DNA of 64,000 nucleotides from an uncultured Acidobacteriota bacterium (GTDB lineage Bacteria > Acidobacteriota > Vicinamibacteria > Fen-336), in NCBI GenBank assembly GCA_963729875.1, contig CAVSPR010000004.1, positions 442,046 through 506,045 of the forward strand. The letters run 5' to 3'. Below are positions 29,801 to 64,000 of this stretch, piece after piece; positions within the stretch are counted from its first letter, which is position 1; each line of letters starts with the position of its first letter. The notes beneath the pieces are model-generated. The model ran no database searches. It had not been told where the DNA came from and was given only the letters and a program-made list of their open reading frames with translations. Both the position numbers and the translations under genes were made by a program.

Positions 29801-29810
29801 GGAGGCGGAG

Positions 29811-38079: not shown

Positions 38080-38989
<910 letters not shown>

Positions 38990-41481: not shown

Positions 41482-42451
41482 TAGATCATCTCGGTCTTCC
41501 AGAGGTCGTGCAGGTGCAGCACGCCCTCGATCCGGCCCTCCTCGTCCGTGACCAGGAGGGAGGTGATCTTGCGCGTCTCCAGGAGGTCGAGGGCGCGCGT
41601 GGCGAGCTCGCGGCGGCCCACCAGCACGGGGTCGCGGGTCATGCACTCGGCGGCGGTGCGGTCGAGGAGAGCGTAGCCGTGGCGCTCCATCTGCCGCCGC
41701 AGGTCGCCGTCCGAGATCACCCCGAGCAGCTTCCCGTCCTCCTCGGCGACGGTGGTGAGCCCGAGGCGCTTCCTGGTCATCTCGAACAGGACGTCCTTCA
41801 TCCGTCGTGCCCGGGGCCACGCGGGGGACGGCGTCACCGGTGTGCATGAGGTCCTCGACCCGGAGCAGCTTCTTGCCGAGGCGGCCGCCGGGGTGCAGCA
41901 CGGCGAAGTCGTCCACGGTGAAGCCCCGCCTCTCGAGCAGCGCCATGGCGAGCGCGTCGCCCATGGCGAGGGCGGCGGTGGTCGAGGCGGTGGGGGCGAG
42001 GCCGAGGGGGCACGCCTCGGCGCGGATGGACACGTCGAGGTGGACGTCGGCGGCCTGGGCGAGGGGCGAGCGGGGGTTGCCGGTGAGGGCGACGACGGCC
42101 GAGCCCAGCCGCTTGACCCAGGGCAGCGAGGGCCAGGATCTCCTCCGTGTCGCCGCTGTTCGAGACGGCGAGGAGCACGTCCCCCTTCACGATGCGGCCG
42201 AGGTCGCCGTGGATCGCCTCGGCGGGGTGGAGGAAGAGCGAGGGGCTGCCGGTCGAGGCGAGCGTGGCGGAGATCTTCTGGGCGATGATCCCGCTCTTGC
42301 CCATGCCGGTGGCCACCACGCGGCCGGTGCAGGCGAAGAGCGTCTCCACGGCCCGGTCGAAGCTCTCGTCGAGGCGCGGGATCAGCGCGCGGATCGCCTC
42401 CGCCTCGGTCTCCAGCACCTTGCGCGCGGTCTCGCGGGGCATCGGGCCCAT
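41481..42451 (-). pseudogene. kpsF: Arabinose-5-phosphate isomerase (KpsF/GutQ; SIS + tandem CBS) split over three frames by two or more indels
   Basis: SIS N-terminus VVATGMGKSGIIAQKISATLASTGSPSLFLHP...VLLAVSNSGDTEEI (ORF 41834..42451); SIS C-terminus ...FTVDDFAVLHPGGRLGKKL (frame of ORF 40294..42033); CBS pair ...VISDGDLRR...VTDEEGRIEGVLHLHDL (ORF 41481..41837). Confidence 0.7.
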
Positions 42452-42455
42452 CCTA

Positions 42456-44958
<2,503 letters not shown>

Positions 44959-44963
<5 letters not shown>

Positions 44964-45771
44964 CGGTCCTTCCCTTCTCGGGGCGAAGGAGCGCGCGCAC
45001 GCGCTCGAGGTCCTCGGGAGTGTCCACCGCGACGCCGCCCTCCCCGTCCAACGGCACGACGCGGATCCTCATGCCGTGGTGCAGGGCGCGGAGCTGCTCG
45101 AGCCCCTCGGCCTCCTCGAGCGGCGAGCGGGGGAGCGAGGCGAAGCGCAGGAGGGCCTCGCGCCGGTACGCGTAGAGGCCCACGTGCTTGCGCGCCAGGC
45201 CGCGCGCGACCGCCGCCTCCGCCGCCGCGCGCAGGTCGGCGCCCTTCCCGAGGCGCGCGTGGGGGATCGGGCTGCGCGAGAAGTAGAGGGCGTCGCCCCC
45301 GGCGTCGACCACCACCTTGACCACGGACGGGGCGAGCATCTCCTCGACCGAGCGGAGGGGAGCGAGAGCGTCGCCATCGGGAGCCCGGGCTCTTCGAGCG
45401 AGCGCCCCGGCCGCCGCGTCGATCCCCGCCGGGTCGAGCATCGGCTCGTCGCCCTGCACGTTCACCACGATCTCGGCCTCGAGGGCCCGGGCCACCTCGG
45501 CGAGGCGGTCGGTCCCGGTCGGGTGGTCGGGCGAGGTGAGGACCGCCTCCCCGCCGAAGCCGCGGACGACCGAGGCGATGCGCTCGTCGTCGGTCGCAAC
45601 GACCACCCGGTCCGGCATCCGGGCCGCGCGCGCACGCTCGTACACCCGCTGGATCATGGTCTTCCCGTGGATCACCGAGAGGGGCTTCCCCGGCAGCCGT
45701 GTGGAGGCGAAGCGCGCGGGGATGATGGCGACGATGGCCAAGCTTGGTCGGGGCCCTCGTGAACATCGCAT
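44959..45771 (-). CDS. kdsB: 3-deoxy-manno-octulosonate cytidylyltransferase (CMP-Kdo synthetase)
   Basis: [21 protein letters not shown]...NVQGDEPML matches the KdsB family; 270 aa. Confidence 0.85.
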
Positions 45772-45843
45772 CCTACCAGATCGCCCCGCGCGAGGAAACG
45801 GGGACCGCCCTTGCGGCGCGGCTGCTATAGTCCCCGCGCGGGC

Positions 45844-48174
45844 ATGACTCTCCCTCGCGTCGTCAGGCGGGACGCTGCGGTGGCCGGTCTCGTGCTCGCC
45901 CTCTGCCTCGTGCTCTTCCCGCGCGCGCTGCTGAGGGGCGAGATCTTCTTCGAGCGCGACCTCCACGTCGACTGGTACCCACGCATCGCCTCCATCTCCC
46001 GCAGCCTGGCCGCGGGGGCGTGGCCGCTGTGGGACCCGTTCATCGGCTTCGGGCAGCCGCTCCTCGCCGACCCCGGGGCGCAGGTGGCGTACCCGGCCAC
46101 CTGGCTGGCGCTGCTTCTCCCCACCGGCGCGGGCTACACGGCCTTCGTCGTCTGCCACCTGGTGCTGACCGCGGTCGGGGCCGCGCGGCTCGCGCGCGCG
46201 GTCGGGGCCGGCCGGGTCGGGGCGGTCGCGGCGGCCGCATTCTGGACGCTGTCGGGCCCCCTGCAGTCGAGCGTGAACCTGTGGCACCACTTCGCGGGCG
46301 TCGCCTGGACGCCCTGGGTGCTGCTCGCCGTCGACCGGCTGGCACGGCGGCCGGGCGCCGCCGCCGCGGCGTGGCTCGCCGCGGCGCTCGGGGTCCAGAT
46401 ACTGGCCGGCTCGGCGGACGCGTGCGCGATGACGCTCCTCCTCGGGGCGGGGTGGGCCGGCCTCCGCCTCGCCGGGCGCTCGGCCCGGGGGCGCCGGGCG
46501 GGGCGGGCCGCCGGGGCGGCGGCCGGCGCGATCGTGGTCGCCGCCGCGGCGACCGCCGTCGTCTGGTGGCCCGCGGGCGACCTGCTGTCCCGCTCGCCCC
46601 GCCGGGACCTCCCGGAGGACGTCCGCACCGCCTGGTCGGTGCCGGCGGCGGGCCTGCTCCGGCTCGCCGTTCCGCTCGAGCCCTCGCGCGTGCCCTTCGC
46701 GTCGGGGACGTGGCCGTCGCTCTACGGCGGCCCGCAGCCGCCCTTTCTTCTCTCCCTGTACATGGGCCCGGTGCTGCTCGCGGGGGCCGTCGCCGGCCTC
46801 GCGTGGAGGAGGGTGCGGCGGCGCGCCGTGCTGCTGCTCGCGGGGGCGACGGGGGCCCTCGCGGTGGCGATGGGGCCGCAGGGCCTGGTCTACTCCCTGC
46901 TGGTCGCGCTCCTTCCCCCGCTGCGCATCTTCCGCTACCCGTCGAAGGCGACCCTGGTGGCGGCGCTCCTCCTCTCGCTCGCGGCGGGACTGGGCGTGGC
47001 CGCAATGCGGCGCGGCGCCTGTCGGCCGGCCCTCGCCGGGCTCCTGCTCGCGGGCGCGCTGCTGGCGGGCCTCGCGGGGCCCGGCTTCGGAGCCGCCTTC
47101 CCCGTGCTGGTGGTCGCCCTGGCCTGCGCCGCCGCGGTCCTGGTGACGCTGGTGGCGCGGGGCCGTGTCCGCCCGGGGCTCGCGGCCCCTGTTTTCGCCG
47201 CGCTGGCCGTCGCCGATCTGGTGGGCGTGCACGCGGGGATGAACCCGACGGCGCCCGCCTCGCTGCTGCTCGTCCCCCCTCCCCTCGTCTCGCACGTGGA
47301 CCGCAGCGAGGGACGCCGCCTCTACGTCTACGACTACCACGGCCTCCCCGAGGCCTCGCGGAGCCACCTCGGCCGGGCCGCCCCCTATGCTCATCTCTCC
47401 GCGCCCGCCGGCTGGGACGAGCGCGCGTTCGTCATGGTGGCGCTGCGTCTGTACCTGGTGCCGCCCGCGGCCGGCTTCTACGGGCTGGAAGGCAGCTACG
47501 ACCTCGACCTGCGCGGCCTCTACCCGCGGGAGCTCCGGGACCTGACCCTCTTCCTCCGCCAGGTGGAAGGGCAGCCGGCGCACGCGAAGCTCCTGCGCAT
47601 GGGGGCGGTGGGAACCGTGGCCTCCCTCCACGACGGTGGCTTCGGAGTGCCCGTCGCGACCCTCGCGAGCCTCTTCCCCGAGCCGATCCGCGTGTGGCGC
47701 GTGCCGGAGGCGCTCCCCCGCTCGTGGGTCGCAGGGTGCGCGCGTCTCGCCGACCGGGGTCCCGCGTTCGAGGCGCTCCTCGACCCGGGTTTCGACCCGG
47801 CGGGAGAGGTCATTCTCGCCGGGCCGGTCAGCGGGGGCTCGACGTGCGGGCCCGCGGGAACGAGCCGCTACCTCAGCCCGCAGCCCGACCGGGTGCGGCT
47901 GGAGGTCGAGGCGGAGAGGGAAGGGTACGTCGTCGTGGCCGACGCCTTCGACCCCGGGTGGCAGGCGAGCGTCGACGGTGTGGCCGCGCCGTTGCTGCGG
48001 GCGAACGTGGCCTTCCGCGCCGTCCCCGTCCCCGCCGGCCGGCACGTCGTCGAGATGGTCTACCGGCCCCGGGCCGTGGCCCGCGGGCTCGCCCTCACGC
48101 TGCTCACGATCGCCCTGGCGGCCGTCGCCGCGGCCACAGCAGCCCTGCGGTCGCGGCGAGGGCGAGGGCGCTGA
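45844..48174 (+). CDS. YfhO-family GT-C membrane protein, paralogue 1
   Basis: N-terminal TM bundle with ERDLHVDWYP... and the C-terminal YfhO signature DPGWQASVDGVAAPLLRANVAFRAVPVPAGRHVVEMVYRP. Confidence 0.7.
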   Translation: MTLPRVVRRDAAVAGLVLALCLVLFPRALLRGEIFFERDLHVDWYPRIASISRSLAAGAWPLWDPFIGFGQPLLADPGAQVAYPATWLALLLPTGAGYTAFVVCHLVLTAVGAARLARAVGAGRVGAVAAAAFWTLSGPLQSSVNLWHHFAGVAWTPWVLLAVDRLARRPGAAAAAWLAAALGVQILAGSADACAMTLLLGAGWAGLRLAGRSARGRRAGRAAGAAAGAIVVAAAATAVVWWPAGDLLSRSPRRDLPEDVRTAWSVPAAGLLRLAVPLEPSRVPFASGTWPSLYGGPQPPFLLSLYMGPVLLAGAVAGLAWRRVRRRAVLLLAGATGALAVAMGPQGLVYSLLVALLPPLRIFRYPSKATLVAALLLSLAAGLGVAAMRRGACRPALAGLLLAGALLAGLAGPGFGAAFPVLVVALACAAAVLVTLVARGRVRPGLAAPVFAALAVADLVGVHAGMNPTAPASLLLVPPPLVSHVDRSEGRRLYVYDYHGLPEASRSHLGRAAPYAHLSAPAGWDERAFVMVALRLYLVPPAAGFYGLEGSYDLDLRGLYPRELRDLTLFLRQVEGQPAHAKLLRMGAVGTVASLHDGGFGVPVATLASLFPEPIRVWRVPEALPRSWVAGCARLADRGPAFEALLDPGFDPAGEVILAGPVSGGSTCGPAGTSRYLSPQPDRVRLEVEAEREGYVVVADAFDPGWQASVDGVAAPLLRANVAFRAVPVPAGRHVVEMVYRPRAVARGLALTLLTIALAAVAAATAALRSRRGRGR

Positions 48175-50367
48175 GCGCGAGGCCTCCGCGAAGGCGCGGG
48201 GGCCGGAAGCGCAGCTCCACCGAGCTGCGGCCCCGCGGCACCGGGACCGTCCACCCACCGGGGACGCGCCCCAGTGCCGCCGGCCGGCCGTCGACCGTCC
48301 CCTCCCATCCCCGCGCCCAACCCTCGCGCACGACGAGCGTGGCCGGGCGGTCCGACTCGACGATGGCCAGGATTCGCCCGGTCGAGCGGTGGGCCTCGAC
48401 CACCCGCCCGGCGGGCGGATCACCGCCGGGCGGAACGGCCGTCACCTCGAGCAGCGGTGAGGGCCGCCTCGTCTCGTACACGCGCACCCGGAGCGGGGCC
48501 ACGCGGGCCGGCGCGAGCGTCCGCTCGAGGGCGAGGTCCGGGTGGCGCAGCTCCGTGGCGCTGAGCACCCACCGGACGCCGGCGAGCTGCAGGCGCGGGG
48601 CGATCCGGTCGAGGTCCCGGCAGGAGGCCTCCTCCGGCGAAAGCACCTGCTCCTCGGGCACGAGCATGGTGAGGTCGGGGCTGAGCGCGGTGGCGACCCC
48701 GAAGCGCAGGTTCGAGAACGGCGTGAGGGTCTCCTGGAGGCCGGCGAAGGTCCACAGCTCGTGGTCCCCGCCGCGCGCGTGGCGGGCGGCCACGTAGGCG
48801 GGGCTTTCGTCGAGCGAGCAGGTGAAGACGCGGCCCTCGCGCAGGGACGGCAGCGCCGCGGAGAGCTCCCGGGAGACCCCGAAGAACGGGACCGGGACCA
48901 TGGGGTTGAGCCCCGCCCCGGCGCGGAGCAGGTCGGCGGCGACCACGACCACGGCCAGTCCGACCCCGATGCGGGGGGCGAGCTTTCCGAGGAGGACGGC
49001 GAGCGCGGTCCCGCAGAGCAGGAGCGCGAGGAAGCCGCCGGCGGCCGCGTCGGCCAGGACCCGTTCCAGCATCCGCGCCCTCGCGGACGCGTCGAGGCCA
49101 GGGGGGAAGAACCGCGCGCCGAAGGCCGCCAGCGGTCCCGGCAGGAGGGCCGGGAGCGTCGCGGAGAGCGCGAGGACCGCTCCCAGCGCACCCGCCACGG
49201 CGCCGAGCCGCCTCCAGGCGGCGCGCGACGGCTCGCCGGCGAGCGCGGCGAGGCCCAGGGATGCCAGGAGGGACACGGCGAAGTGGACGGTGAAGAACGC
49301 CTTCACCGGGAAGCGCAGGACGCGCAGCGCCGGGACCGCGTCGACGAGCGGGGCGAGGCCCGCGAAGCGCCCGAGCGACAGGACGAGCGCGACCAGGGCC
49401 AGGGCCGCGAGCGGGCGGCTCATCCTCCGGCCCGACGTCGCCCCGACGAGGCACAGCGAGAGGGCCGCCGCGCCGAGGTAGAGGCTCAGCACGTAGGGGA
49501 AGCCCCGGGGAAGAAGTTCTGGCCCCACCACTCGTTGACGAGGTTGCTCGTGTTCCCGTACAGCCCGCCCACGACGACCTGGAGGAGCGTGAAGGGGTGG
49601 ACGGAGTGGGCGAGGACCACGTCGGTGGGCAGCCCGCGCCCGCGGGCGCTGCCCTCCACCTGGCCCGCGACCAGGACGAGGACCGGCGCCGCGATCGCGG
49701 CGCCGAGCGCCAGCGAGCCCGCGAGCGCGAGCCGGTCCGCCGCCCGGGCCCGGGCGAGACGCCGCCAGCCCAGGACCAGCCCGATCGCCACGGCCTGTCC
49801 GACGACCTCGACGCCCGTCGTCGAGAGGCCGATCGCCAGGAGGAGAGCGGTGAGGGCCACGGCGCGGCGGTCGCTTCCCGGACCGTCCCGCGCGAGCACG
49901 AGGACCAGGAGCGGGGCCCAGGCCGCGGCCTCGACGTACACGTAGAGGTTCAGGCTCGAGAGCAGGAAGCCGCCGAGCGCGTAGACGAGCGCCCCCCCGG
50001 CCGCCGCGACGGCGGGGAGGCCCAGGCCGCGGGCCATCGCGAGGAAGGTGACCGCGGCGAGCGGGACGTGCAGGGCGAGTACCAGCGAGATGCCGACCTC
50101 GTCGGGTCGCACCAACTGGAGGAGGTCGAGGGGGTATCCCACGGCGGGCAGGGACAGGGGGACACCCTCGTGGACCAGGGGGTTCCACAGCCGCACCTCG
50201 CCCGCCCGCAGGCCCTCGAGCGCGTAGCGTCGCAGGGGCAGGAACTGCATCGCGAGATCGCGGAAGTAGAGGGACGCGCCGGAGAGGGCCCCGCGCAGGA
50301 AGGGCAGGAAGGCAACCAGCGCGACGAGGGCGGCGGGGAGCGCCCGGCGTCCTCGGGTCGGGCCCAC
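48104..50367 (-). CDS. YfhO-family GT-C membrane protein, paralogue 2; frameshift at ~49495-49505 (C run)
   Basis: N-terminal half in ORF 49486..50682 (...LYFRDLAMQFLPLRRY...NEWWGQNFFPG), C-terminal half in ORF 48104..50188 (GFPYVLSLYLG...ARGWEGTVDGRPAALGRVPGGWTVPVPRGRSSVELRFRP). GTG start ~50367, 9 nt after the acetyltransferase stop. Confidence 0.65.
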
Positions 50368-50375
50368 TTCGACCC

Positions 50376-50915
50376 TCAGTCGAGGCGACGCAGGACGCGG
50401 GCGGGCACGCCGGCGACCAGCGTTCGCGGTGGCACGTCGGCGGTGACCACGCTGCCGGCGGCCACGAAAGAGCAGGACCCGACCCGCACCCCGGGCAGCA
50501 GCGTGACGTTCGCGCCGACGAAGGCGCCCGACTCCACCACGACCGGCGCCGCGACCGCGGGGAAGTGCGCCTGGAGGGGGTGGTCGGCGTAGCCGACGTT
50601 CGTGTGGGTGAGGACCAGGACCCGCTCGGCGAGCGTGACCTGGCGCTCGAGGCGGACGGACTCGGCGAGGTCGATCAGGCACTCGTCGCCGAGGAAGCAG
50701 TCCTCCCCGACGTCGAGCCCGCGCAGCCCGCGGCGGTAGAGGTTGAAGAAGCGCACGTCGTGCAGGATGGCGCGGCGGCCCACGCGGGCCCCGAGCAGGC
50801 GAAGCCAGGGCGCGCGCAGCTGGGGCACGAGCGCGAGGCGGTAGGGGACCATCGCGAGCGTGAAGAAGCCGAAGCGCACGGCGCGGCCCCAGCCGATCTC
50901 GCGGAGCGCCTTCAT
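50376..50915 (-). CDS. Hexapeptide-repeat (LbH) acetyltransferase
   Basis: MKALREIGWG... N-terminal TM, then left-handed beta-helix repeats (VVESGAFVGANVTLLPGVRVGSCSFVAAGSVVTADV). ATG overlaps the GT2 stop (ATGA). Confidence 0.75.
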   Translation of the reverse strand: MKALREIGWGRAVRFGFFTLAMVPYRLALVPQLRAPWLRLLGARVGRRAILHDVRFFNLYRRGLRGLDVGEDCFLGDECLIDLAESVRLERQVTLAERVLVLTHTNVGYADHPLQAHFPAVAAPVVVESGAFVGANVTLLPGVRVGSCSFVAAGSVVTADVPPRTLVAGVPARVLRRLD

Positions 50916-51637
50916 CGCCCCTCGGCCCGCAGCCGGCGCCGGAAGCGGAGGAGCTGGCGGAAGTAGCGCGCGGAGTCGCGGAGGCCGCGCACGGTCGACG
51001 CCTTGTCCTCGCGGCGCACGTAGGCCCCTGGGATCTCCGTGACCTCGAGGCCGCGGCGCGCCGCGCGCGCCATGAACTCGGTGTCCCAGAACCACCCGCC
51101 GTCCTCGATCTCGTCGAGGAGGGGCAGCACCCGCTCCCGCCGGAAGAACTTGTAGCCCGTCTCGGTGTCGCGGTAGGGCACCCCGAGCAGCCGGCGGACG
51201 AGGAAGGAGTAGCCCCGGCTCATGAGGTAGCGGTCGAGGGAGAGGACCTGGAAGGCGTAGATGCGGCGCAGGGTCGCCACGTCCGCCCCCTTCTCGATCG
51301 CCCGCACGAGGGACGGGATGTAGCGACAGTGGACCTCGAGGTCGACGTCGATGTAGCCGGCGATCGTCCCCCGCGCCGCCCGGAAGCCGTCGGTCACGGT
51401 CGCCCCCCGCCCGCGGTTGGCGTCGTGCAGGATGAGCCTCAGGTCCAGGCCGGGGTGCGCCGCCACGATCGCGTCGAGGATCTCCCGGGTCCGGTCGCGG
51501 CTCGCGTCGTCGACGAAGAGGACCTCGAAGGGCCAGGGGGCCTGCTCGAGCGTCTCGAGGATCTCGTCGACGCTCCCCGCGAGGTGCGGTGCTTCGTTGT
51601 AGCAGGCCAGCACGAGGCTGAGGTACGGCGCCGTCAC
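50912..51637 (-). CDS. GT2 glycosyltransferase, polyprenyl-phosphate sugar synthase type (ArnC/GtrB/DPM1-like)
   Basis: LSLVLACYNEAPHL...EVLFVDDASRDRT...ANRGRGATV(DxD-region)...FLVRRLL match a GT2 of the ArnC/GtrB type. GTG start overlaps the aminotransferase stop (GTGA). Confidence 0.8.
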   Translation of the reverse strand: MTAPYLSLVLACYNEAPHLAGSVDEILETLEQAPWPFEVLFVDDASRDRTREILDAIVAAHPGLDLRLILHDANRGRGATVTDGFRAARGTIAGYIDVDLEVHCRYIPSLVRAIEKGADVATLRRIYAFQVLSLDRYLMSRGYSFLVRRLLGVPYRDTETGYKFFRRERVLPLLDEIEDGGWFWDTEFMARAARRGLEVTEIPGAYVRREDKASTVRGLRDSARYFRQLLRFRRRLRAEGR

Positions 51638-52779
51638 CGCCCGGTCTCCCGGACCGCGTCCACGACCCGCTCGACGTCCTCGTCCGAGAGGAGCGGGTGG
51701 AGGGGGAGGCGCAGCAGCCTCGCTGCCACCCGGTCGGTGACCGGCAGATCGGTCTCGACGCCAATCGCGCGGGCGTGGGGAGACGAGTGCAACGGGACGT
51801 AGTGGAAGGTGGCGCCGATGCCCCCCGCGCGCAGGGCCGAAAGGGCCGCATCGCGGAGGCGACCCTCGGGGTAGATCAGGTGGAAGATGTGGTGGTTCGA
51901 CGTCCGCTCCGGCAGCTCCGCCGGGAGCCGGACCCCGTGCTCGGCCGCCCAGGACGAGAGGCCCGTCCGGTAGCGGGCCACGACGGCCGCGCGCCGAGAC
52001 TCGATGGCCTCGAGCTTCGCGAGCTGGGCGAGGAGGACGGCGGCCAGCAGGTCGGAGAGCACGTAGCTGCTGCCCTCCGCGATCCAGGTGTACTTGTCCA
52101 CCTCTCCGCGGAAGAACGCGGCGCGGTTCGTGCCCTTCTCTCGGACGATCTCGGCCCGGCGCGCCACGGCCGGGTCGGAAACCACCAGGGCGCCGCCCTC
52201 GCCGCAGGTGACGTTCTTCGTCTCGTGGAAGCTCAGGCACCCCGCGTCCCCCAGGGTGCCGAGCGCGCGCGAGCGCCAGGTCGCCCCGAGGCCCTGGGCG
52301 GCGTCCTCGACCAGGAGCAGGCGGCTGCGTCGGGCCAGCCCGAGGAGGGCCTCCATGTCGGGCGCCACCCCGGCGTAGTGCACGGGCAGGATCGCGGCGG
52401 TGCGCGGAGTGATCCGGGACTCGACGTCCGCGGGGTCGAGCCCGAGCGTCGTCTCCTCGATCTCCGCGAAGACGGGGCGGGCCCCCACGCGCAGCACGGC
52501 GTTCGCGCTCGACACGAACGTGAACGAAGGGCAGATCACCTCCTGGCCCGGGCCAATCCCCAGGGCGAGCAGGCCGAGCTCGAGGGCGTGGGTGCCCGAG
52601 GTGGTGAGCAGCACTCGGGAGGCGCCGAGTCGCTCGGCGAGGAGCGCCTCGACCCGGCGGCCGATCGGGCCGTCGCCGGCCACGCGTCCCCCGAGCGCTT
52701 CGCGTACGGCCTCGACCTCGCGCTCGTCGAACCACGGCGCGTGGAAGGGAATCGGGTGGTCGTTCGGCGCGCGCCCCAC
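51634..52779 (-). CDS. DegT/DnrJ/EryC1/StrS-family sugar aminotransferase (ArnB/WecE-like)
   Basis: IPFHAPWFDEREVEAVREAL...TSGTHALELGL...FHETKNVTCGEGGALV (PLP-Lys region). The start is uncertain: GTG ~52779 is only ~27 nt from the divergent YfhO-3 start. Confidence 0.75.
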   Translation of the reverse strand: MGRAPNDHPIPFHAPWFDEREVEAVREALGGRVAGDGPIGRRVEALLAERLGASRVLLTTSGTHALELGLLALGIGPGQEVICPSFTFVSSANAVLRVGARPVFAEIEETTLGLDPADVESRITPRTAAILPVHYAGVAPDMEALLGLARRSRLLLVEDAAQGLGATWRSRALGTLGDAGCLSFHETKNVTCGEGGALVVSDPAVARRAEIVREKGTNRAAFFRGEVDKYTWIAEGSSYVLSDLLAAVLLAQLAKLEAIESRRAAVVARYRTGLSSWAAEHGVRLPAELPERTSNHHIFHLIYPEGRLRDAALSALRAGGIGATFHYVPLHSSPHARAIGVETDLPVTDRVAARLLRLPLHPLLSDEDVERVVDAVRETGR

Positions 52780-52806
52780 GGCGCGGATGCTAACATGCCC
52801 CCGCGA

Positions 52807-55083
52807 ATGAACGGGTGGCGCGGGGCGCTCGCGATCGGGCTGGCCGCGGTCGCGTGGCTTTTCTCGGGGCCGCTCTTTGCGGGTCGCGTCCTCTACTACC
52901 GCGACGTCGCCGTCACGTACTACCCGGACCTGGTCTTCGTCGAGCGCTCGCTGGGCCAGGGAGTCTGGCCCCTCTGGCACCCGGGAGCCGACGCCGGCGC
53001 GCCGTTCCTGCTCGCCTACCCGGTCCACCTCGTCCTCCTGCTCGCGGTCGGGGCCCGAGCGACACTCGCGCTCTCCCCACCGCTGCACCTCCTGCTCGCG
53101 ATGGCGGGGACCGCCGCGCTCGCCCGACGGCTGGGGATCGGGCCGGCGGGTTCGGCCCTCGCGGGTGCGGTCTTCGGGCTCTCGGGCCAGATGCTGGGCT
53201 CGGTCCTCTACCCCGTGTTCCTCGCCGCCGCCTGGGCGCCCCTGGCCGTGGAGCGCTTCCTCGCGCTCGTCCAGTCCCCGAGCGGTCGCCGCGTCGCGCT
53301 CCTCGCCCTCGTGCTCGCGGCGCAGGTCTCGACCCTCGGTGCCGAGGCCGTCCTCGCCACCGCGGTGGCCGCGCTCTTTCTGATCGCGCGCCGGCCCGGT
53401 CGTCGCGCGGTGCTGTCCGCCGCCGCGGCCCTGGCCCTCGCCGCCTGCCTCGCCGCGCCCGCGCTGCTCGGGGCGTGGGCTCTGCTCGCCGGCACGGCGC
53501 GGGGAGCCGGCTTCCCGGCCGCCGAGCGCCTGGGTTTCTCGGCGCCGCTCCCCGTCCTCCTCGAGGCGGTGTGGCCGCGCTTCCTCGGGGACACCCACAC
53601 CTTCACCGACGTCGGCTACTGGGGTCAGCCGTTCTTCCCTTCGGGCTCGCCCTTCTTCCTGAGCCTCTACCTGGGCCCGGTCGTCTTCCTCCTCGCGCTC
53701 GGCGCCCGGAGGGGGGCACGACGCCTTTGGGCGCTGGCGGGCCTCGGGGTGCTCCTGGCGCTCGGTGGGCACGGGCCCCTCGGCCTCGCACCGTGGCCCT
53801 TCCCGGGCTTCCTGCGCCACCCGGTGAAGCTGTTCCTCCTGGCGACACTCGCGGTCGCCCTGCTGGCCGGGCTGGGCCTCGAGCGCGCGCGGGCCGGGCC
53901 GGGCCGACTGCGCCGGTGGGCCTGGGTGCCGGGCCTGGCCCTGCTGGCCGCAGCGCTCGTCGCCCGGCTCGCGCCGGGCGCCCTGGCGGCCGGACTGTCT
54001 CTCGTGATTCCCGCGGCCGGGGGGCCGCAGGCCGGGGAAGTCATCCGTGGGCAGTGGCCGCTCGCGATGGCATCGACGGGGGCGCTCGCGCTCGGGGCGG
54101 GCCTCGCGGTCCTCGCCGGCCCGAGGCTGGCCGCGGTCGCGGGTCTCCTCGCGATCGTGGATCTTCTCGTGGTGAACGGCGGGCTCAACCCATCGGCGGA
54201 CGGGACCTTCTTCACCCTGCGGCCGGAGGTTCGGGAAGCCGTCGAAAGGGCACGCGCGGAAGGACGGTACCGGTGGTTCTCCTACGGCATCGCCGGCTCA
54301 CCCGGCCTGCGGTGGGATCCCGCGATCGTGCGGCGCGACTCGGACGTCTGGCTCTTCTACCTCGACCGGCAGTCGCTGCTGCCGCGCACGCACGTTCTCG
54401 ACGGCCTCGAGGGGGCCTTCGACGTCGACCGCATGGGGCTCGCGCCGGCCGCGTCGACCCTGGGGGTGGCCGAGGCCCGGACGGCTCTGTTCCCTGAGCA
54501 CTACCGCCGCCTGCGGCTCGCCGGGGTCCGCTGGGTGCTGGGCTTCGACGCGCTTCCCGAGGACCTCGTCCGCCTGCGGGCGTCGCTGCCCCTGCCGGGG
54601 CTGGTCGAGCCCCTGCGACTTCACGAGCTGCGCGACCCGCTCCCGCGCGCCTTCTGGGTCGGGGAGGCGGAAGTCGAGCCGGACCCCGCCCGCCGGGCGC
54701 GCCGGCTCGAGGACGCCCGGTTCGACCCGCGGCGGGCCGTGCTCCTCGACACCGCGCCGCCCCCCCTCCCGAGCGCTCCGGGCGGCCCCGGGTACGAGGC
54801 CCGTGTGTCGTATCGCCTGATCGACCCCCATACCGTGAGCCTGGAGGCTCGGACGCCGCCCGGCTTTCTCGTCGTCCTCGACGGCCATCATCCGGACTGG
54901 GTGGCCGAGGACGAGTCGGGTCCGGTCAGCGTCCTGCGGGCCCAGGGGCGCTACCGCGCTCTGCCGACCGCGGGGGGCGAGCGGCACATCACCTTGCGCT
55001 ACCGGCCTCGATGGCGGGCGAGCGCGCTGACGCTGGCCGGCCTCGGTGCCCTCGCCGCGATGGCTCTCGCCTTCCGGCGGTGA
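52807..55083 (+). CDS. YfhO-family GT-C membrane protein, paralogue 3
   Basis: MNGWRGALAIGLAAVAWLF...VLYYRDVAVTYYPDLVF...YWGQPFFPSGSPFFLSLYLGPVVFLLALG and a C-terminal domain homologous to paralogues 1 and 2. Confidence 0.7.
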   Translation: MNGWRGALAIGLAAVAWLFSGPLFAGRVLYYRDVAVTYYPDLVFVERSLGQGVWPLWHPGADAGAPFLLAYPVHLVLLLAVGARATLALSPPLHLLLAMAGTAALARRLGIGPAGSALAGAVFGLSGQMLGSVLYPVFLAAAWAPLAVERFLALVQSPSGRRVALLALVLAAQVSTLGAEAVLATAVAALFLIARRPGRRAVLSAAAALALAACLAAPALLGAWALLAGTARGAGFPAAERLGFSAPLPVLLEAVWPRFLGDTHTFTDVGYWGQPFFPSGSPFFLSLYLGPVVFLLALGARRGARRLWALAGLGVLLALGGHGPLGLAPWPFPGFLRHPVKLFLLATLAVALLAGLGLERARAGPGRLRRWAWVPGLALLAAALVARLAPGALAAGLSLVIPAAGGPQAGEVIRGQWPLAMASTGALALGAGLAVLAGPRLAAVAGLLAIVDLLVVNGGLNPSADGTFFTLRPEVREAVERARAEGRYRWFSYGIAGSPGLRWDPAIVRRDSDVWLFYLDRQSLLPRTHVLDGLEGAFDVDRMGLAPAASTLGVAEARTALFPEHYRRLRLAGVRWVLGFDALPEDLVRLRASLPLPGLVEPLRLHELRDPLPRAFWVGEAEVEPDPARRARRLEDARFDPRRAVLLDTAPPPLPSAPGGPGYEARVSYRLIDPHTVSLEARTPPGFLVVLDGHHPDWVAEDESGPVSVLRAQGRYRALPTAGGERHITLRYRPRWRASALTLAGLGALAAMALAFRR

Positions 55084-55186: not shown

Positions 55187-55215
55187 TTGACACCTCTAGA
55201 CCTGGGCGTTAGCAT
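55187..55215 (+). promoter_or_regulatory. Putative sigma70-type promoter TTGACA-N17-TAGCAT upstream of pilB
   Basis: Same architecture as the pilM upstream element (27942-27970). Confidence 0.35.
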
Positions 55216-55264: not shown

Positions 55265-57113
55265 ATGCCCGTCAAGCTCGGAGAACTGCTGCTGAAGGAG
55301 AACATGGTGTCTCCGCAGCAGCTCCAGGACGCGCTCAACCACCAGAAGATGAACGGGGGCAAGCTCGGCAAGGCCTTCGTCAGCCTGGGATTCGTGAAGG
55401 ACGAGGAGATCACCAGCCTTCTGTCGCGCCAGTACGGTGTCCCGTCGATCAACCTCGACCACTTCGAGGTCGATCCCGCGATCATCAAGATCATCCCCGC
55501 CGAGACGGCCCGGAAGTACCAGGTCCTGCCGCTGTCGCGCTCCGGCGCGACCCTCACGATCGCCATGGCCGACCCCACGAACGTGTTCGCCATGGACGAC
55601 ATCAAGTTCATGACGGGCTACAACGTGGAGCCGGTCGTGGCCTCGGAGAGCGCGCTCGAGGACGCGATCGAGCGCTACTACGGGTCGACCCGCTCGCTGG
55701 AGCTTCGGCGGGGGCACGGCGCGCCCGGCGGGGCGGCACGGGAGCCGGGCGGCAGCCCGGCCGGCCTCAAGGAGGTCATGGAGGGGCCGACCCTGAGCGT
55801 CGACGACATGGCCGCGATCGGCGGCCTGTCCGAGATCGACCTCGACTCGATGGGCGAGGCGGAGGCCGACGTCGAGACCGTCAAGAGCGAAGACGACGAG
55901 ATCGACCTCGGCAACCTGGCCAAGTCGGCCGACGCCGCGCCGGTCGTCAAGCTGACGAACGTGCTGCTCGTCGACTCGCTCAAGCGGGGGGCCTCGGACA
56001 TCCACATCGAGCCCTACGAGAAGGAGTTCCGGGTCCGCTTCCGGATCGACGGCATCCTGTACAACGTGATGGCGCTGCCGCATGAAGCTGCGGGACCCGC
56101 TCATCTCGCGCATCAAGATCATGGCCAAGCTGGACATCGCCGAGAAGCGCCTGCCCCAGGACGGGCGCATCAAGATCAAGATGAAGGTCGAGGACCGCAG
56201 CCGCGACCTCGACTTCCGCGTCTCCTGCCTGCCCACCCTGTGGGGCGAGAAGATCGTCATGCGGCTGCTCGACAAGTCGAAGCTGATGCTCGACATGACG
56301 AAGCTGGGCTTCGAGCCGCACTCGCTCGAGCGGTTCAAGCTCGCGATCTCCAAGCCCTACGGCATCGTCCTGGTGACCGGGCCGACCGGGTCGGGCAAGA
56401 CGAACACGCTCTACTCGGCGATCGCCGCGCTCAACAAGCCCGACACCAACATCATGACCGCCGAGGACCCGGTCGAGTTCAACCTGCCGGGGATCAACCA
56501 GGTCCAGATCAGGGACAACATCGGCCTCAACTTCGCGGCGGCGCTGCGCTCGTTCCTGCGCCAGGACCCGAACATCATCCTGGTCGGCGAGATCCGCGAC
56601 TACGAGACCGCGGAGATCGCGGTCAAGGCGGCCCTCACCGGGCACCTCGTGCTCTCGACCCTGCACACCAACGACGCGCCCTCCACCGTGTCGCGCATGG
56701 TCAACATGGGCATCGAGCCGTTCCTGGTCGGCACCGCGGTGAACCTGATCCAGGCCCAGCGCCTGGTGCGCCGCGTCTGCTCCAAGTGCAAGGTCGACGT
56801 CGCCGCCGACGTGCCGGCCAAGACGCTGATCGACATCGGCTTCACGCCCGAGCAGATCGGCACCTTCAAGGTCATGAAGGGCAAGGGTTGCGGGACCTGC
56901 AACGGCACCGGCTACAAGGGCCGGGTGGGCCTCTACGAGGTGATGGAGATCACCGAGGGGATCCGCGACCTGATCATGGTCGGGGCCACCGCGGTCGAGA
57001 TCAAGAGAAAGGCCCTCGAGGAGGGGATGCTCACCCTGCGCATGAGCGGCCTCGAGAAGATCAGAAACGGCGTGACGACCGTCGAGGAGGTCCTCCGGGA
57101 GACGGTTCTCTAG
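55265..57113 (+). CDS. pilB: Type IV pilus assembly ATPase PilB; single inserted base at ~56081
   Basis: N-terminal GSPII_E_N domain (ORF 55265..); the C-terminal ATPase continues in ORF 56082..57113 (GPTGSGKT Walker A, tetracysteine CSKC...CGTCNGTG). Junction ...ILYNVMALP|(M)KLRDPLISRIKIM. Confidence 0.85.
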
Positions 57114-57159: not shown

Positions 57160-58383
57160 GTGGCCGTCAGCCTTCACCAGTTGCTCAAGACCATGACGGA
57201 GATGGGGGGGACCGACCTCCACGTCACCACCAACTCCGCGCCGCAGATCCGCGTCGACGGCAAGCTGCGCCCGCTCGACCTGCCGCCGCTGTCGCCGGTC
57301 GAGACCAAGCAGCTCGCCTACAGCGTGCTGACCGACGCGCAGAAGCACCGCTTCGAGGAGAACCTCGAGCTCGACTTCAGCTTCGGCATCAAGGGCCTGG
57401 CCCGCTTCCGCGCGAACGTCTTCATGCAGCGCGGCGCGGTGGCGGCGGTCTACCGCACGATCCCCTACGAGATCCGCGGCTTCCGGGAGCTGGGGCTGCC
57501 CCCGGTGGTGTCCACGATCTGCGACAAGCCGCGCGGGCTGGTCCTGGTGACCGGGCCCACCGGCTCCGGCAAGTCGACGACGCTCGCCGCCATGCTCGAC
57601 AAGATCAACTCCGAGCGCCACGAGCACATGCTCACCATCGAGGACCCGATCGAGTACCTGCACCAGCACAAGAAGTGCGTGGTCAACCAGCGCGAGGTCC
57701 ACGCCGACACCCACTCCTTCGCCAACGCGCTGCGTGCCGCGCTGCGCGAGGACCCCGACGTCGTGCTGATCGGTGAGATGCGCGACCTGGAGACGATCGA
57801 GTCCGCCCTGCGCATCGCGGAGACCGGCCACTTCACCTTCGCCACCCTGCACACGAACTCGGCCTCCCAGACCATCAACCGCATCATCGACGTCTTCCCC
57901 GCGCACCAGCAGTCGCAGGTCCGGGCGCAGCTGTCGCTCGTGCTGGAGGGCATCATGTGCCAGGCCCTCCTCCCGCGCGCGAGCGGCAGCGGGCGCGCGA
58001 TGGCCATGGAGATCCTGGTCCCGAACCCCGCCATCCGCAACCTGATCCGGGAGGACAAGATCCACCAGATCTACTCCTCGATGCAGACCGGCCAGGAGAA
58101 GTACGGGATGCAGACCTTCAACCAGTCCCTGGCCAGCCTGTACTTCGCCAAGCAGATCACTCTGCAGACCGCCCTCGGCATCAGCTCGAACCCCGAGGAG
58201 CTGCAGGACATGATCAACCGCGGCGCCGGTCTCGCCACCCCGCAGACCGGGGGCCGCCGCCCGTGCGGCCGGCAGGCCGCTAGCTCCGGGAGGAAAAGAT
58301 GCCTGCTTTCGTCTGGAAGGGCAAGACGCGCGACGGCAAGGTCGTCTCCGGCGAGCGGGTCGCCGACAACAAGGAAGCGGTGA
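57160..58383 (+). CDS. pilT: Twitching-motility ATPase PilT; annotated frame overlaps pilC by 85 nt, true stop probably TAG at ~58280 after an indel near 58248-58253
   Basis: MAVSLHQLLKTMTEMGGTDLHVT..., GPTGSGKST Walker A, AIRNLIREDK. An alternative frame after the GGGGG run ends at a TAG 16 nt before the pilC RBS/ATG. Confidence 0.85.
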   Translation: MAVSLHQLLKTMTEMGGTDLHVTTNSAPQIRVDGKLRPLDLPPLSPVETKQLAYSVLTDAQKHRFEENLELDFSFGIKGLARFRANVFMQRGAVAAVYRTIPYEIRGFRELGLPPVVSTICDKPRGLVLVTGPTGSGKSTTLAAMLDKINSERHEHMLTIEDPIEYLHQHKKCVVNQREVHADTHSFANALRAALREDPDVVLIGEMRDLETIESALRIAETGHFTFATLHTNSASQTINRIIDVFPAHQQSQVRAQLSLVLEGIMCQALLPRASGSGRAMAMEILVPNPAIRNLIREDKIHQIYSSMQTGQEKYGMQTFNQSLASLYFAKQITLQTALGISSNPEELQDMINRGAGLATPQTGGRRPCGRQAASSGRKRCLLSSGRARRATARSSPASGSPTTRKR

Positions 58384-59502
58384 TGGCGCTGCTGCGGCGC
58401 GACCAGATCCTGGTCTCGTCGGTCAAGGAGAAGGGGCGCGAGATCGCCCTGCCGAAGTTCGGTGGGGGCGTGCCGGCCAAGGACCTCGCCATCTTCACCC
58501 GGCAGTTCTCGGTCATGATCGACGCCGGCCTGCCCCTCGTCCAGTGCCTCGAGATCCTGGGCGGCCAGCAGGAGAACAAGACCTTCGCCAAGGTCCTCCA
58601 GCAGACCCGCATGGACGTGGAGGGCGGGGCGAGCCTGGCCGACGCGATGCGCAAGCACCCCAAGGCCTTCGACGACCTCTTCACCAACATGATCGCGGCG
58701 GGCGAGGCGGGCGGCATCCTCGACACCATCCTCAAGCGCCTGGCGACCTACATCGAGAAGAACGTCAAGCTGAAGGCCCAGGTCAAGGGCGCCATGGTCT
58801 ACCCGATCTCGGTCATCAGCATCGCCGGCATCGTCATCAGCGTCATCCTCTGGAAGGTCATCCCCACCTTCGCCGCGATGTTCGCGGGCCTCGGCGCCGA
58901 GCTGCCGCTGCCCACGCGGTTCGTGATCGCGCTCTCCAACTGGCTGATCCGGCTGCTGCCCTTCCTCGTCGTGGGCGGCATCCTGGGAGTGATGGGGTTC
59001 AGGCGGTACTACGCCACCTACTGGCGGCCGGCGCGTCGTCGACAAGGTGGTGATCAACGCGCCCATCTTCGGCACCCTGATGCGGAAGATCGCCGTGGCC
59101 CGCTTCTGCCGCACCCTCTCGACCCTCATCTCCTCCGGCGTGCCCATCCTCGACGGCCTGGAGATCACCGCGCGGACGGCCGGCAACGCGATCGTCGAGG
59201 ACGCCATCATGGCCGTCCGCAAGGGGGTGGAGAGCGGCCTCACCATGGCCCAGCCCCTCAAGGAGACCGGGGTCTTCCCCGCGATGGTCGTCCAGATGAT
59301 CGGGGTCGGCGAGCAGACGGGCGCCCTCGACGCGATGCTCAGCAAGATCGCCGACTTCTACGAGGAGGAGGTGGACCAGGCGGTGGCCAACCTGCTCACC
59401 CTGATGGAGCCGGTCATGATCCTGTTCCTCGGCGTCACCGTCGGCGGCATCATCATCGCGATGTACCTGCCGCTGTTCGACCTCATCAGCAAGCTCTCCT
59501 GA
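58299..59502 (+). CDS. pilC: Type IV pilus inner-membrane platform protein PilC; frameshift at ~59025-59035
   Basis: N-terminal half in ORF 58299.. (MPAFVWKGKTRDGK...GSPII_F domain 1). C-terminal half in ORF 59047..59502 (VINAPIFGTLMRKIAVARFCRTLSTLISSGVPIL...). RBS GGAGGAAAAG precedes the ATG. Confidence 0.85.
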
Positions 59503-61311: not shown

Positions 61312-61411
61312 CCGGACCCGCCCGGAAGGGTGCGCCACCCGCGCTTGAGGGATGCGCGACCGAGAGGGTAGCATTCGTGCGGTCACGGCACAGAGAGGAG
61401 GGGCGCGCGAG

Positions 61412-63725: not shown

Positions 63726-64000
63726 GATGAAGAAGCAGAAGGGCTTCACCCTGATCGAGCTGCTGATCGTCGTGGCGATCATCGGCATCATCGCGGCGAT
63801 CGCGATCCCGAGCCTCCTCCGGGCGCGCGTGTCGGCCAACGAGTCGGCCACCATCGGCGACATCCGGACGGTCATTTCGGGGCAGGCTGCCTACCAGTCC
63901 GCCAACGGCGGCTGGTACGCGGGCAACATCACGTGCCTGAGCGTCCCGAGCGGCGGGGGCTGCATTCCCAACTACCTCAACACCGCGCCGACGTTCCTCG
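63726..64000 (+). CDS. pilA: Type IV pilin PilA, copy 2; 3' end beyond the window
   Basis: MKKQKGFTLIELLIVVAIIGIIAAIAIPSLLRARVSANESATIGDIRTVISGQAAYQSANGGWYAGNITCLSVPSGGGCIPNYLNTAPTF differs from copy 1 at only two or three residues so far. Confidence 0.85.

Follow-up and report, generated by a model that had tools for sequence, protein, structure and literature searches.

An island of six genes in a 64-kb stretch of soil Acidobacteriota DNA (the whole stretch analysed, hereafter the window) is best read as a pilus-linked variant of the known three-component glycosylation systems that work through lipid-phosphate-linked sugars. It holds three GT-C paralogues (A, BC and G), a DegT aminotransferase (F), a GT2 (E) and a hexapeptide acetyltransferase (D), and in our estimate the chances are evenly balanced that these form a modular extracytoplasmic glycosylation system that is functionally part of the type IV pilus locus. 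Three-component systems are well studied in the LPS and O-antigen of Proteobacteria and in the teichoic acids and surface proteins of Firmicutes, and the YfhO branch counts as a Firmicutes family. Here, in abundant soil Acidobacteriota, genes of a large YfhO-like clade that Pfam mostly misses recur within the type IV pilus cluster, together with swappable sugar cassettes.

Genes were called from third-position GC frame plots, the genome having about 72% GC. All six genes listed by the original prediction are present and in place, by frame plots and by Pfam and NCBIfam matches. Paralogue A (45844-48174, plus strand, 776 aa by frame plot) follows the TTG at 45811 from which the prediction had counted, and which is the upstream end of its ORF. 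BC (48104-50367, minus strand, 754 aa once repaired, by frame plot) meets it head-on, the 3' ends of the two genes overlapping by 71 nt. Also on the minus strand lie D (50376-50915, 179 aa), a left-handed beta-helix acetyltransferase matching Pfam Hexapep and Hexapep_2; E (50912-51637, 241 aa), a GT2 of polyprenyl-phosphate-sugar synthase type with no TM helix; and F (51634-52779, 381 aa), a PLP-dependent sugar 4-aminotransferase assigned to the WecE type by NCBIfam NF008687. F and E overlap in GTGA, E and D in ATGA, and only 8 nt separate D from BC, so that F-E-D-BC form one operon with BC as its last gene. G (52795-55083, plus strand, 762 aa) stands directly upstream of pilB. The F-E-D-BC group is kept together in more than 25 related loci, and the island genes are conserved in more than 40, which sets them apart from chance ORFs. 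In most relatives a 500-aa membrane protein, X, is encoded between F and G; it is missing from the window, has no Pfam or NCBIfam family and shows no relation to the GT-C family by hhalign.

The large membrane proteins had been predicted to be three divergent YfhO-family GT-C paralogues. They are mutual paralogues of about 760 aa each (BLASTP E 1e-12 to 1e-33), BC and G aligning at E 1e-33 over 746 aa. In A, some 12 TM helices at the N-terminus precede a periplasmic domain, and a further TM helix closes the protein at the C-terminus. The Pfam YfhO profile (PF09586; gathering cut-off 28.5 bits) accepts A at 32.1 bits, places BC below the cut-off at 25.2 bits and does not find G; neither G nor 25 relatives of its family match any Pfam or NCBIfam model, and a G-family profile matched none of the PDB sequences. 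The match of A spans only its C-terminal residues 685-752 (68 aa, profile positions 767-835), relatives of A match at positions 765-835 only, and its database homologues are annotated with PF09586 as 'YfhO family protein [Vicinamibacteria]'. Judged from their sequences, A, BC and G are YfhO-like; where the Pfam profile matches the clade, it does so over the last 60-70 residues only and not over the catalytic TM module.

Profile comparison aligns the G family with the A family over their full length (hhalign probability 100%, E 1.3e-67, 697 columns), and G is a branch of the YfhO-like family that escapes Pfam. The predicted structure of G is a confident GT-C fold, in which the C-terminal domain is modelled as a beta-sandwich followed by a TM helix. 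All three proteins have the motifs RD, LWxP, SLYxG and RxPxK in common, as FERD36-39, LWDP62, SLYMG304 and RYPSK364 in A and as YFRD34, LWNP60, SLYLG295 and RFPVK352 in BC; the Arg-Asp pair after TM1 is invariant and the RxPxK motif is kept. A multi-TM GT-C fold is thus combined with an acidic residue that is conserved in extracytoplasmic loop 1, and nothing in these comparisons sets the proteins outside the GT-C/YfhO homologues. A profile of the A and G families found 85,763 clusters at 50% identity (E <=1e-3) in a search of 1.84 billion representatives; the best 150 matches are all close relatives, none of which bridges to canonical YfhO. Relatives of G fall into 321 database clusters at E <=1e-3. 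A caution for annotation follows, in that G and several hundred detected relatives are labelled only 'hypothetical protein'.

The second GT-C gene, BC, had been noted as frameshifted. The break is indeed there in the letters, a -1 shift at 49503-49510 (minus strand) in a CCCCGGGG run from which one C is missing; one added base restores the 754-aa protein, and orthologues read ...NFFPRGFPY(V/L)LSLYLG... at the break, which needs CCCCC. This is very probably a long-read assembly error and not a pseudogene, because other genes of the window, essential ones among them, are also shifted (at least seven frameshifts affect pyrG, kdsD, pilB, pilC and folD) and BC is intact in its relatives (L004, L007, L011, L015, L023 and L025), including short-read assemblies. 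Homopolymeric tracts serve phase variation of surface-glycan genes in other bacteria, and the position of the break in such a tract would suit slippage in the C/G run, or a pseudogene. However, no viable cell could carry a load of frameshifts such as this, which is what uncorrected long-read assemblies typically show, and fragmentation of the same kind recurs in the related MAG loci L001, L003, L011, L012 and L024. A pseudogenised or phase-variable BC was rejected on the spread of frameshifts across the window, and a real frameshift is barely credible.

E had been predicted to be a GT2 of the polyprenyl-phosphate-sugar-synthase type, and its relatives agree. It matches Pfam Glycos_transf_2 at 88 bits, and the solved structures nearest to it in both sequence and fold are those of Dol-P-Man synthase (DPMS), ArnC and GtrB. 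The GT-A domain has a DxD motif, and the HMMER alignment with DPMS extends beyond the catalytic domain through the conserved TGYKFFRR segment. No hydrophobic or TM segment was found in its 241 aa; the C-terminal TM helices of GtrB, ArnC, CsbB and archaeal DPMS are missing, and the protein ends in an amphipathic basic helix (residues 218-240). A processive GT2 was considered and rejected, since E has no TM helices and no synthase-type model matches it above the polyprenyl-P enzymes; E does not cluster with processive cytoplasmic GT2s.

Alternatively, E could work in the cytoplasm as an ordinary GT2, lengthening an acceptor that is lipid-PP-linked or soluble, in which case F-E-D would be a fragment of a conventional polysaccharide pathway and the membrane proteins would be independent of it. 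The lack of a TM helix fits such an enzyme, as do scores against the ArnC (47.8 bits, cut-off 529), PgfS and DPMS models that are far below the family cut-offs and similar to those against PgaC and EpsD, and loci L002 and L006, which hold A, X and G without F-E-D-BC. Against it, the best sequence and fold matches are the polyprenyl-P enzymes named above, and TM-less polyprenyl-P synthases exist in eukaryotic DPM1 and mycobacterial PpgS; E also matches the NCBIfam PpgS and haloarchaeal Dol-P-hexose transferase models. In addition, BC shares the operon and travels with F-E-D, and the island, which its six genes fill, is without an initiating phosphoglycosyltransferase, Wzx, Wzy or ligase by Pfam and ORF inspection. 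An ordinary GT2 is therefore very unlikely, and E is taken here as a candidate polyprenyl-P-sugar synthase.

F matches Pfam DegT_DnrJ_EryC1 at 330 bits and was predicted to be of ArnB type, an assignment that gives way on closer family tests. It passes the NCBIfam equivalog NF008687 (WecE, dTDP-4-amino-4,6-dideoxygalactose transaminase; cut-off 375) with 442.5 bits in an end-to-end alignment (residues 10-378 with profile positions 2-372 of 375), and fails the ArnB model (249 bits, cut-off 631). Its best PDB matches are WecE (4piw, 6blg), with 316 bits for 4piw vs 217 for ArnB (1mdo). The score against TIGR02379 is 373.8, below the cut-off of 434.85, and the C4 configuration of the product could be galacto or gluco. 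By these matches F is a WecE-type enzyme whose predicted product is a dTDP-4-amino-4,6-dideoxyhexose. For D, the best NCBIfam match is the WcaF family (69.8 bits, below the cut-off of 192), the NeuD/PglB/VioB model TIGR03570 is failed (59.7 bits, cut-off 160.8) and the best PDB matches are LacA/Maa-type enzymes, so that D resembles O-acetyltransferases of the WcaF and LacA/Maa types more than it does N-acetyltransferases, and the N-acetylation that had been predicted is putative.

These assignments fit the three-component logic of the original prediction, in which sugar-nucleotide tailoring supplies a polyprenyl-P-type GT2 and then a GT-C enzyme. The pathway would start from dTDP-4-keto-6-deoxy-D-glucose made by RmlA/RmlB-type enzymes encoded elsewhere, no rmlA or rmlB having been found in the window. 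F would transaminate this to a dTDP-4-amino-4,6-dideoxyhexose (Fuc4N or Qui4N), D would acetylate it, most simply at the new amine, and E would load the sugar onto undecaprenyl phosphate at the inner membrane face. We know of no transfer of a 4-acetamido-4,6-dideoxyhexose to Und-P for a GT-C enzyme. A flippase encoded outside the island would then carry the lipid-linked sugar to the periplasmic face. As predicted, no GtrA-like flippase is visible: the window contains no GtrA-sized multi-TM ORF, D, E and F have no TM segment, and no GtrA/GtcA-type or ArnE/F-type flippase was found in the island or recorded in the inspected flanks of related loci. In the periplasm the transfer of the sugar would fall to BC, whose gene is co-transcribed with F-E-D, and, if all three are active, to the paralogues A and G as well. 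The acceptors would most probably be Ser/Thr residues in type IV pilins or in other proteins of the pilus, and each paralogue may have its own acceptor site or its own donor.

The flanks in the window are those that had been predicted, Kdo genes on one side and the pilin locus on the other. Upstream, lapB, kdsD, kdsA, pyrG and kdsB make up a housekeeping block, of which kdsB (CMP-Kdo synthetase; 44959-45771, minus strand; 75% identical to an L002 gene with Pfam CTP_transf_3) is the left boundary of the island. Downstream runs pilB-T-C-S-R-pilA, all on the plus strand: pilB (assembly ATPase; 55265-57113; 84-90% identity to L002 PilB over two frames, with a frameshift near 56073-56098), pilT (retraction ATPase; 57160-58383; 94% identity to L002 PilT), pilC (platform protein; 58299-59502; frameshift near 59023-59078), pilS (sensor kinase; 59653-61311; orthologue with Pfam 6TM_PilS, HisKA and HATPase_c), pilR (sigma-54-dependent response regulator, by orthologue comparison; 61352-62782) and pilA, a type IV pilin and the candidate acceptor (62935-63474; 179 aa; Pfam N_methyl). 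A second pilin gene (63727-64000) ends at the window edge, its first 91 aa being 98% identical to pilA. At 20% of PilA as a whole and 22-23% of its globular part, the Ser and Thr content is ordinary and favours no reading. G and pilB are 181 nt apart, and the AT-richer gap has a sigma-70-like promoter match (TTGACA-17-TAGCAT, 55187-55215, plus strand; a consensus match only, with 1 site vs 0.0 expected in shuffles), so that G need not be co-transcribed with pilB.

In the window the island adjoins the Kdo block as closely as pilB, and the original prediction gave the two neighbours similar weight. The related loci strongly favour the pilus. These number 109, with enough flank for counting in 72; since all belong to a single clade (Acidobacteriota, chiefly Vicinamibacteria MAGs and soil contigs), they are not independent. 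Type IV pilus genes are present in 42 of the 72 informative loci, 30 of them without kds or pyrG; kds genes without pil genes were seen in only 4/72, all short contigs cut on the pilus side. YfhO-like genes enter the pil clusters in three different arrangements, mostly with no Kdo genes nearby. They stand between kdsB and pilB, as in the window (type I); between pilD and an AhpC-ABC-pilA-pilA-pilR block with no kds (type II; for example L029, L056, L064, L067, L071, L073 and L076), where the sugar cassette differs and includes an epimerase and a methyltransferase-GT2 fusion; or between pilS and pilR, co-directional with them, in 8 loci (type III). In L043/L044, L106 and L107 they directly flank pilA. 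In the window as in its relatives, then, GT-C genes lie within or beside a type IV pilus cluster, and the neighbouring Kdo genes seem to be there incidentally. Genes resembling membrane sulfatases (LtaS/EptA superfamily) occur with the family in L001, L003, L015, L008 and L021; these and the methyltransferase-like genes of the relatives are only loosely placed in families.

LPS decoration, the leading suggestion of the original prediction, is unlikely on this evidence; on such a reading the GT-C enzymes would add an Und-P-linked amino sugar to lipid A, Kdo/core or O-antigen in the periplasm in the manner of ArnT, Gtr, LgmB or FlmK. The kds block is a housekeeping cluster, the pilus link persists without it, and the type II and III arrangements sit inside pil clusters; F and E fail the ArnB and ArnC models, the GT-C proteins are not of PMT_2/ArnT type, and no ArnA, ArnD or ArnE/F equivalents are present. 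The same chemistry could also serve an acceptor that is neither pilin nor LPS, such as Ser/Thr-rich periplasmic or surface proteins, or an envelope polymer (exopolysaccharide, S-layer or glycerol-phosphate-type) co-regulated with type IV pili. Firmicutes YfhO enzymes modify teichoic acids and many membrane proteins (PMC8035078, PMC12041528), the three to five GT-C paralogues per locus suggest several acceptors, and the sulfatase-like genes in five loci would be at home here. The 16 of 72 loci with neither pil nor kds genes likewise indicate that the family also works in other contexts. However, the genes recur beside pilA, pilR and pilS and also between pilS and pilR, placed as dedicated pilin modifiers such as TfpO and TfpW are, and the island is without Wzx/Wzy/Wza or ABC-type O-antigen exporter genes; we consider another acceptor of this kind rather improbable, and pilus proteins rather than LPS the most likely substrate.

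More tentatively, and somewhat short of probable in our view, the YfhO-like GT-C enzymes of diderm soil Acidobacteriota may be type IV pilin O-glycosyltransferases of a class not recognised so far. Their donors would be Und-P-monosaccharides, among them a hitherto undescribed Und-P-4-acetamido-4,6-dideoxyhexose that a WecE-type aminotransferase and a Dpm1-like GT2 without TM helices would produce. Swappable cassettes (aminotransferase/acetyltransferase or epimerase/methyltransferase) and differing numbers of paralogues would vary the surface of the pilus, for instance as a guard against phages specific to it, with one paralogue wired into the pilS-pilR operon. No earlier description was found in the literature on YfhO with pilin or on Acidobacteria with pilin glycosylation. 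Should pilin prove to be the acceptor, a third enzymatic route to its glycosylation would join PglL/TfpO and TfpW. The lipid-linked donor would be new as well, and surface variation in a hard-to-culture phylum would become easier to approach.

How does the island compare with known systems? With ArnB/ArnC/ArnT (Ara4N on lipid A), to which it had been likened, it has in common a DegT aminotransferase, an Und-P-loading GT2 and a periplasmic GT-C. The likeness ends with this parts list: F is WecE-type, E is no ArnC equivalog, A, BC and G have no PMT_2 match, the ArnA formyltransferase/decarboxylase, ArnD deformylase and ArnE/F flippase are replaced by an acetyltransferase, and the neighbourhood points to pili and not to lipid A. 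An Arn-type lipid A system was rejected on the ArnB, ArnC and PMT_2 family tests. The pairing of aminotransferase and acetyltransferase is the standard route to 4-acetamido-4,6-dideoxyhexoses, as in WecE/WecD (dTDP-Fuc4NAc, enterobacterial common antigen) and VioA/VioB (dTDP-Qui4NAc). In those pathways, unlike the island, the dTDP-sugar is used by a cytoplasmic Leloir transferase on a lipid-PP-oligosaccharide, and D is no GNAT of the WecD kind and not clearly a member of the VioB/PglD family.

Streptococcal YfhO-family GT-C enzymes O-glycosylate Ser/Thr-rich proteins from Und-P-sugars (GtrB/PgtC2 and PgfS/PgfE/PgfM1/PgfM2), and the Pgf operon combines two GT-C paralogues with a sugar-tailoring enzyme (PMC12041528). 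PgfS, PgfM1 and PgfM2 are among the best NCBIfam models for E and A, although with scores far under the equivalog cut-offs (50.7 vs 500; 22.8 vs 1400), and the phylum, sugar and presumed acceptor (type IV pilin) of the island differ. CsbB/GtcA/YfhO of Bacillus, Staphylococcus and Listeria is a three-component system for teichoic acid glycosylation (PMC8035078, PMC5836110), and in Bacillus and Listeria the flippase gene is unlinked (PMC8035078). The division of labour is that predicted for the island, with a GT2 that forms a C55-P-monosaccharide and a large GT-C of YfhO type that acts as its transferase outside the cytoplasm; in neither is a flippase gene linked, and the GT-C resembles A in its multi-TM N-terminal module, extracytoplasmic domain and C-terminal TM helix, with Pfam YfhO matching A. 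In contrast, the island belongs to a diderm Acidobacterium without teichoic acids, its Pfam match is limited to the last 60-70 residues and absent from G, its GT2 is TM-less, its predicted donor is a 4-amino-4,6-dideoxyhexose derivative rather than GlcNAc, and its loci carry three to five paralogues linked to a pilus locus.

The GT-C enzyme TfpW, encoded beside pilA, glycosylates pilin in P. aeruginosa group IV strains (bioRxiv 10.1101/2020.04.19.049825). Compared by description, TfpW ends in a TPR domain, carries an Emb-like proline motif and uses D-Araf, whereas the island has a modelled beta-sandwich and TM helix at the C-terminus and a dTDP-based sugar pathway. Both place a GT-C gene in a pilin locus, sometimes with sugar-synthesis genes clustered alongside, and both would use a polyprenyl-P-monosaccharide for periplasmic O-glycosylation of pilin, which for the island is a prediction.

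The window has a G+C content of about 72%, and mechanical ORF lists are therefore crowded with shadow ORFs. Third-position GC frame plots were used to resolve the genes of the 45.8-55.1 kb region, and reveal six: a YfhO-like membrane protein (A; 45844-48174, plus strand), a second such protein (BC; 50367-48104, minus), a hexapeptide acetyltransferase (D; 50915-50376, minus), a small GT2 (E; 51637-50912, minus), a DegT aminotransferase (F; 52779-51634, minus) and a third YfhO-like protein (G; 52795-55083, plus). The island of the original prediction is confirmed; the span assigned to it (45811-55083) runs from the outer end of ORF A to that of ORF G. Because the stop and start codons overlap at F/E (GTGA) and E/D (ATGA), and the gap from D to BC is only 8 nt, F-E-D-BC forms a single minus-strand operon. 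A and BC are convergent and their 3' ends overlap by 71 nt (48104-48174); both proteins have Arg-rich tails at their ends, and the overlap is seemingly conserved, e.g., as an HSP overlap in the related locus L007. G is divergent from F, with 15 nt separating the chosen start codons. A sigma-70-like promoter is seen in the gap between G and pilB, so the pilB transcript need not include G.

On the minus strand, BC is broken within a CCCCGGGG run (49503-49510). The original prediction had recognized this frameshift, but was wrong on its status. One added base restores ...NEWWGQNFFP(R/G)GFPYVLSLYLG..., where orthologues read NFFPRGFPY. When L002, a related MAG, is taken as reference, kdsD (41481-42452) and pyrG (43325-44962) of the window each change frame twice, and pilB (55265-57113) and pilC (58299-59502) once each; a further frameshift is present in folD (38080-38989). 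With at least seven frameshifts in approximately 13 kb, all in core or essential genes, the window is an unpolished long-read assembly in which single-gene "pseudogene" calls are unsafe. The same kind of fragmentation is found in related long-read MAG loci (L001, L003, L011, L012, L024), and BC is one unbroken ORF in L004, L007, L011, L015, L023, and L025. Since core genes are likewise frameshifted and orthologues are unbroken, BC is taken as an intact gene, and a biological origin of the break is very unlikely.

What are the three membrane proteins? All had been called YfhO-family transferases. A passes the Pfam YfhO model (32.1 bits, cut-off 28.5), albeit via its last 68 residues only, and its relatives align only to profile positions 765-835. 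BC falls below the cut-off (25.2 bits) and G has no score; none of 25 members of the G family matches a Pfam model, and their database label is "hypothetical protein." Pairwise BLASTP E-values among A, BC, and G are 1e-12 to 1e-33, and hhalign aligns the families of G and A over 697 columns (probability 100%, E 1.3e-67), showing that the three are full-length paralogues. They have in common [FY]xRD right after TM1, LWxP at ~60, SLY[LM]G at ~295 and RxPxK at ~350; the R-D residues, R36 and D37 in G, and those of R-x-P-x-K are invariant in 47 sequences. Paralogy, hhalign and the common motifs mark the three as GT-C enzymes, as originally proposed. For A the name "YfhO family" is fair, and for BC and G it serves reasonably as a superfamily label. 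A profile search found no YfhO in the PDB. A profile search of representatives gave 85,763 clusters at E <=1e-3, which makes the superfamily a very large one; among the matches listed in that search were only close relatives and no Firmicutes YfhO. A fourth GT-C, a 605-aa membrane protein of the ArnT/PMT type (Pfam PMT_2, 45 bits), is encoded at 11613-13430 (plus strand), a position unrelated to the island.

F belongs to the Pfam DegT family (330 bits). It passes NCBIfam NF008687 (dTDP-4-amino-4,6-dideoxygalactose transaminase; 442.5 bits, cut-off 375) and fails the NCBIfam ArnB model (249 bits, 631 required), and in the PDB it scores higher with WecE (4piw, 316 bits) than with ArnB (217 bits). 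These scores place F in the predicted specificity class of WecE and not of ArnB, and the ArnB-type sugar class first suggested was mistaken. D is a hexapeptide acyltransferase whose top family models are O-acetyltransferases of the WcaF type (69.8 bits, under the cut-off) and of the LacA/Maa type, with a lower score for the NeuD/PglB/VioB model of sugar N-acetyltransferases (59.7 bits, cut-off 160.8). Given the aminotransferase in its operon, D would most economically N-acetylate the new amine made by F. E (241 aa) did not prove to lack DxD/polyprenyl-phosphate features and to cluster with processive GT2s, and its assignment as a polyprenyl-phosphate-type GT2 therefore holds, by a modest margin. 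Unlike ArnC, GtrB, and CsbB, it has no TM helices.

The nearest relatives are all from Acidobacteriota, mostly Vicinamibacteria MAGs. A representative-genome scan, a metagenome-contig scan and exact-protein look-ups gave 109 loci, which were mapped in tblastn searches that used pilus, Kdo and island proteins as queries. In Type I, the arrangement of the window, the order is kdsB, A, BC<D<E<F, [X], [G], pilB-T-C-S-R-pilA-pilA with variable content: L002 has A, X, and G only, L026, L028, and L034-L036 are without G, and some loci carry methyltransferase-like and membrane sulfatase-like genes between BC and D. Type II (e.g., L029, L056, L064, L067, L071, L073, L076) comprises HK-pilD, an epimerase, a methyltransferase-GT2 fusion, a methyltransferase, two to three YfhO-like genes, AhpC-like, ABC-2, ABC, pilA, pilA, and pilR, with Kdo genes absent nearby. 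In Type III (8 loci), pilS and pilR flank a YfhO-like gene of the same orientation. YfhO-like genes are also immediately beside pilA-pilR in L043/L044, L106, and L107, and on a Marinacidobacterales chromosome a more distant G-like gene adjoins HK-pilD-...-ABC-pilA-pilA-pilR and three membrane sulfatase-like genes.

Neighbors were counted in those 72 loci that offer 2.5 kb or more of flanking sequence; as the loci are phylogenetically related, the counts represent non-independent trials: pil genes without kds or pyrG occur in 30/72, pil with kds genes in 12, only the pil-associated AhpC/ABC block in 10, only kds genes in 4 (short contigs with the pil side cut off), and neither in 16. The LPS emphasis of the original prediction does not survive the comparison of 30 loci with pil alone to 4 with kds alone; the Kdo block is simply what adjoins the other side of pilB in one lineage. 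Three separate insertion points inside pil clusters, each with different sugar cassettes, argue for a functional tie of the YfhO-like genes to the pilus, and would be hard to explain in its absence.

Several other genes accompany these loci. X is a 500-aa multi-TM protein found between F and G in most relatives (L002 8469-9974, minus strand; also L001, L003, L004, L005, L011, L012, L025, L031) and absent from the window; it matches no Pfam or NCBIfam family and hhalign shows no relation to the YfhO-like family. A copy of 45% identity lies between kdsD and kdsA in L026, L028, and L033. In unrelated arrangements, YfhO-like genes repeatedly have as neighbors genes for membrane-anchored proteins of the sulfatase/alkaline-phosphatase superfamily with a distant likeness to LtaS/EptA (L001 3162-6103; L015 4678-7540; L008 2371-9641; L021 8676-10019). 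These proteins might point to a second modification, a phospho-form, of the acceptor that the YfhO-like enzymes would glycosylate. One has PASTA domains, a 457-aa methyltransferase-like protein accompanies them, and in L015 the BC orthologue continues into a sulfatase domain (1463-aa ORF). A ~960-1060-aa protein with a Pfam Spermine_synth domain fills island slots in several loci, beside A or between F and pilB, the place of G in the window (L028 5009-7900; L027 16931-20125; L037 10430-12034; L084 6019-8814). Within the window, translations judged by eye resemble a pilM-pilN-pilO-(pilP)-pilQ set (28056-33351, plus strand) that precedes the Kdo block by ~12 kb on its upstream side; should this reading be right, the window alone would encode much of the machinery of the type IV pilus. 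Tandem pilin genes (62935-63474 and 63727-64000) are 98% identical over their first 91 residues, a duplication also present in most related loci. ORFs at 13909-18647 (minus strand) resemble, by eye only, NiFe-hydrogenase subunits and associated Fe-S/flavoprotein subunits.

In the pathway that the evidence supports best, F would make a dTDP-4-amino-4,6-dideoxyhexose, D would acetylate it, and E would load the acetylated sugar onto undecaprenyl phosphate. A flippase encoded outside the island would flip the lipid-linked sugar, and BC, which shares the operon, would transfer it in the periplasm, as would A and G; type IV pilins are the likeliest acceptors. As originally noted, no flippase gene is present among the ORFs and translations of the 64 kb window, nor are rmlA or rmlB found in it. 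With 20% Ser+Thr, PilA of the window is an N-methyl pilin of the standard kind. The original prediction was right in its pathway logic, and wrong in sugar class, frameshift status and LPS emphasis. We consider the modular three-component chemistry probable for the island; a pilin or pilus-protein acceptor is proposed tentatively, at a little under even chances, and the combined statement of this chemistry with such an acceptor is evenly balanced. An Und-P-linked 4-acetamido-4,6-dideoxyhexose is not known to have been described. Searches of the literature yielded no account of YfhO-like genes in pilus loci or of pilin glycosylation in Acidobacteria.

Precedents cover each half of this proposal. 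For YfhO-family GT-C chemistry, streptococci O-glycosylate Ser/Thr-rich proteins using YfhO-family GT-Cs and GtrB-/PgfS-type GT2s (PMC12041528), and in bacilli teichoic acids are glycosylated by YfhO-family GT-Cs (PMC8035078). For GT-C pilin glycosylation, Pseudomonas TfpW, a GT-C encoded beside pilA, glycosylates pilin using a polyprenyl-P-sugar (bioRxiv 10.1101/2020.04.19.049825).
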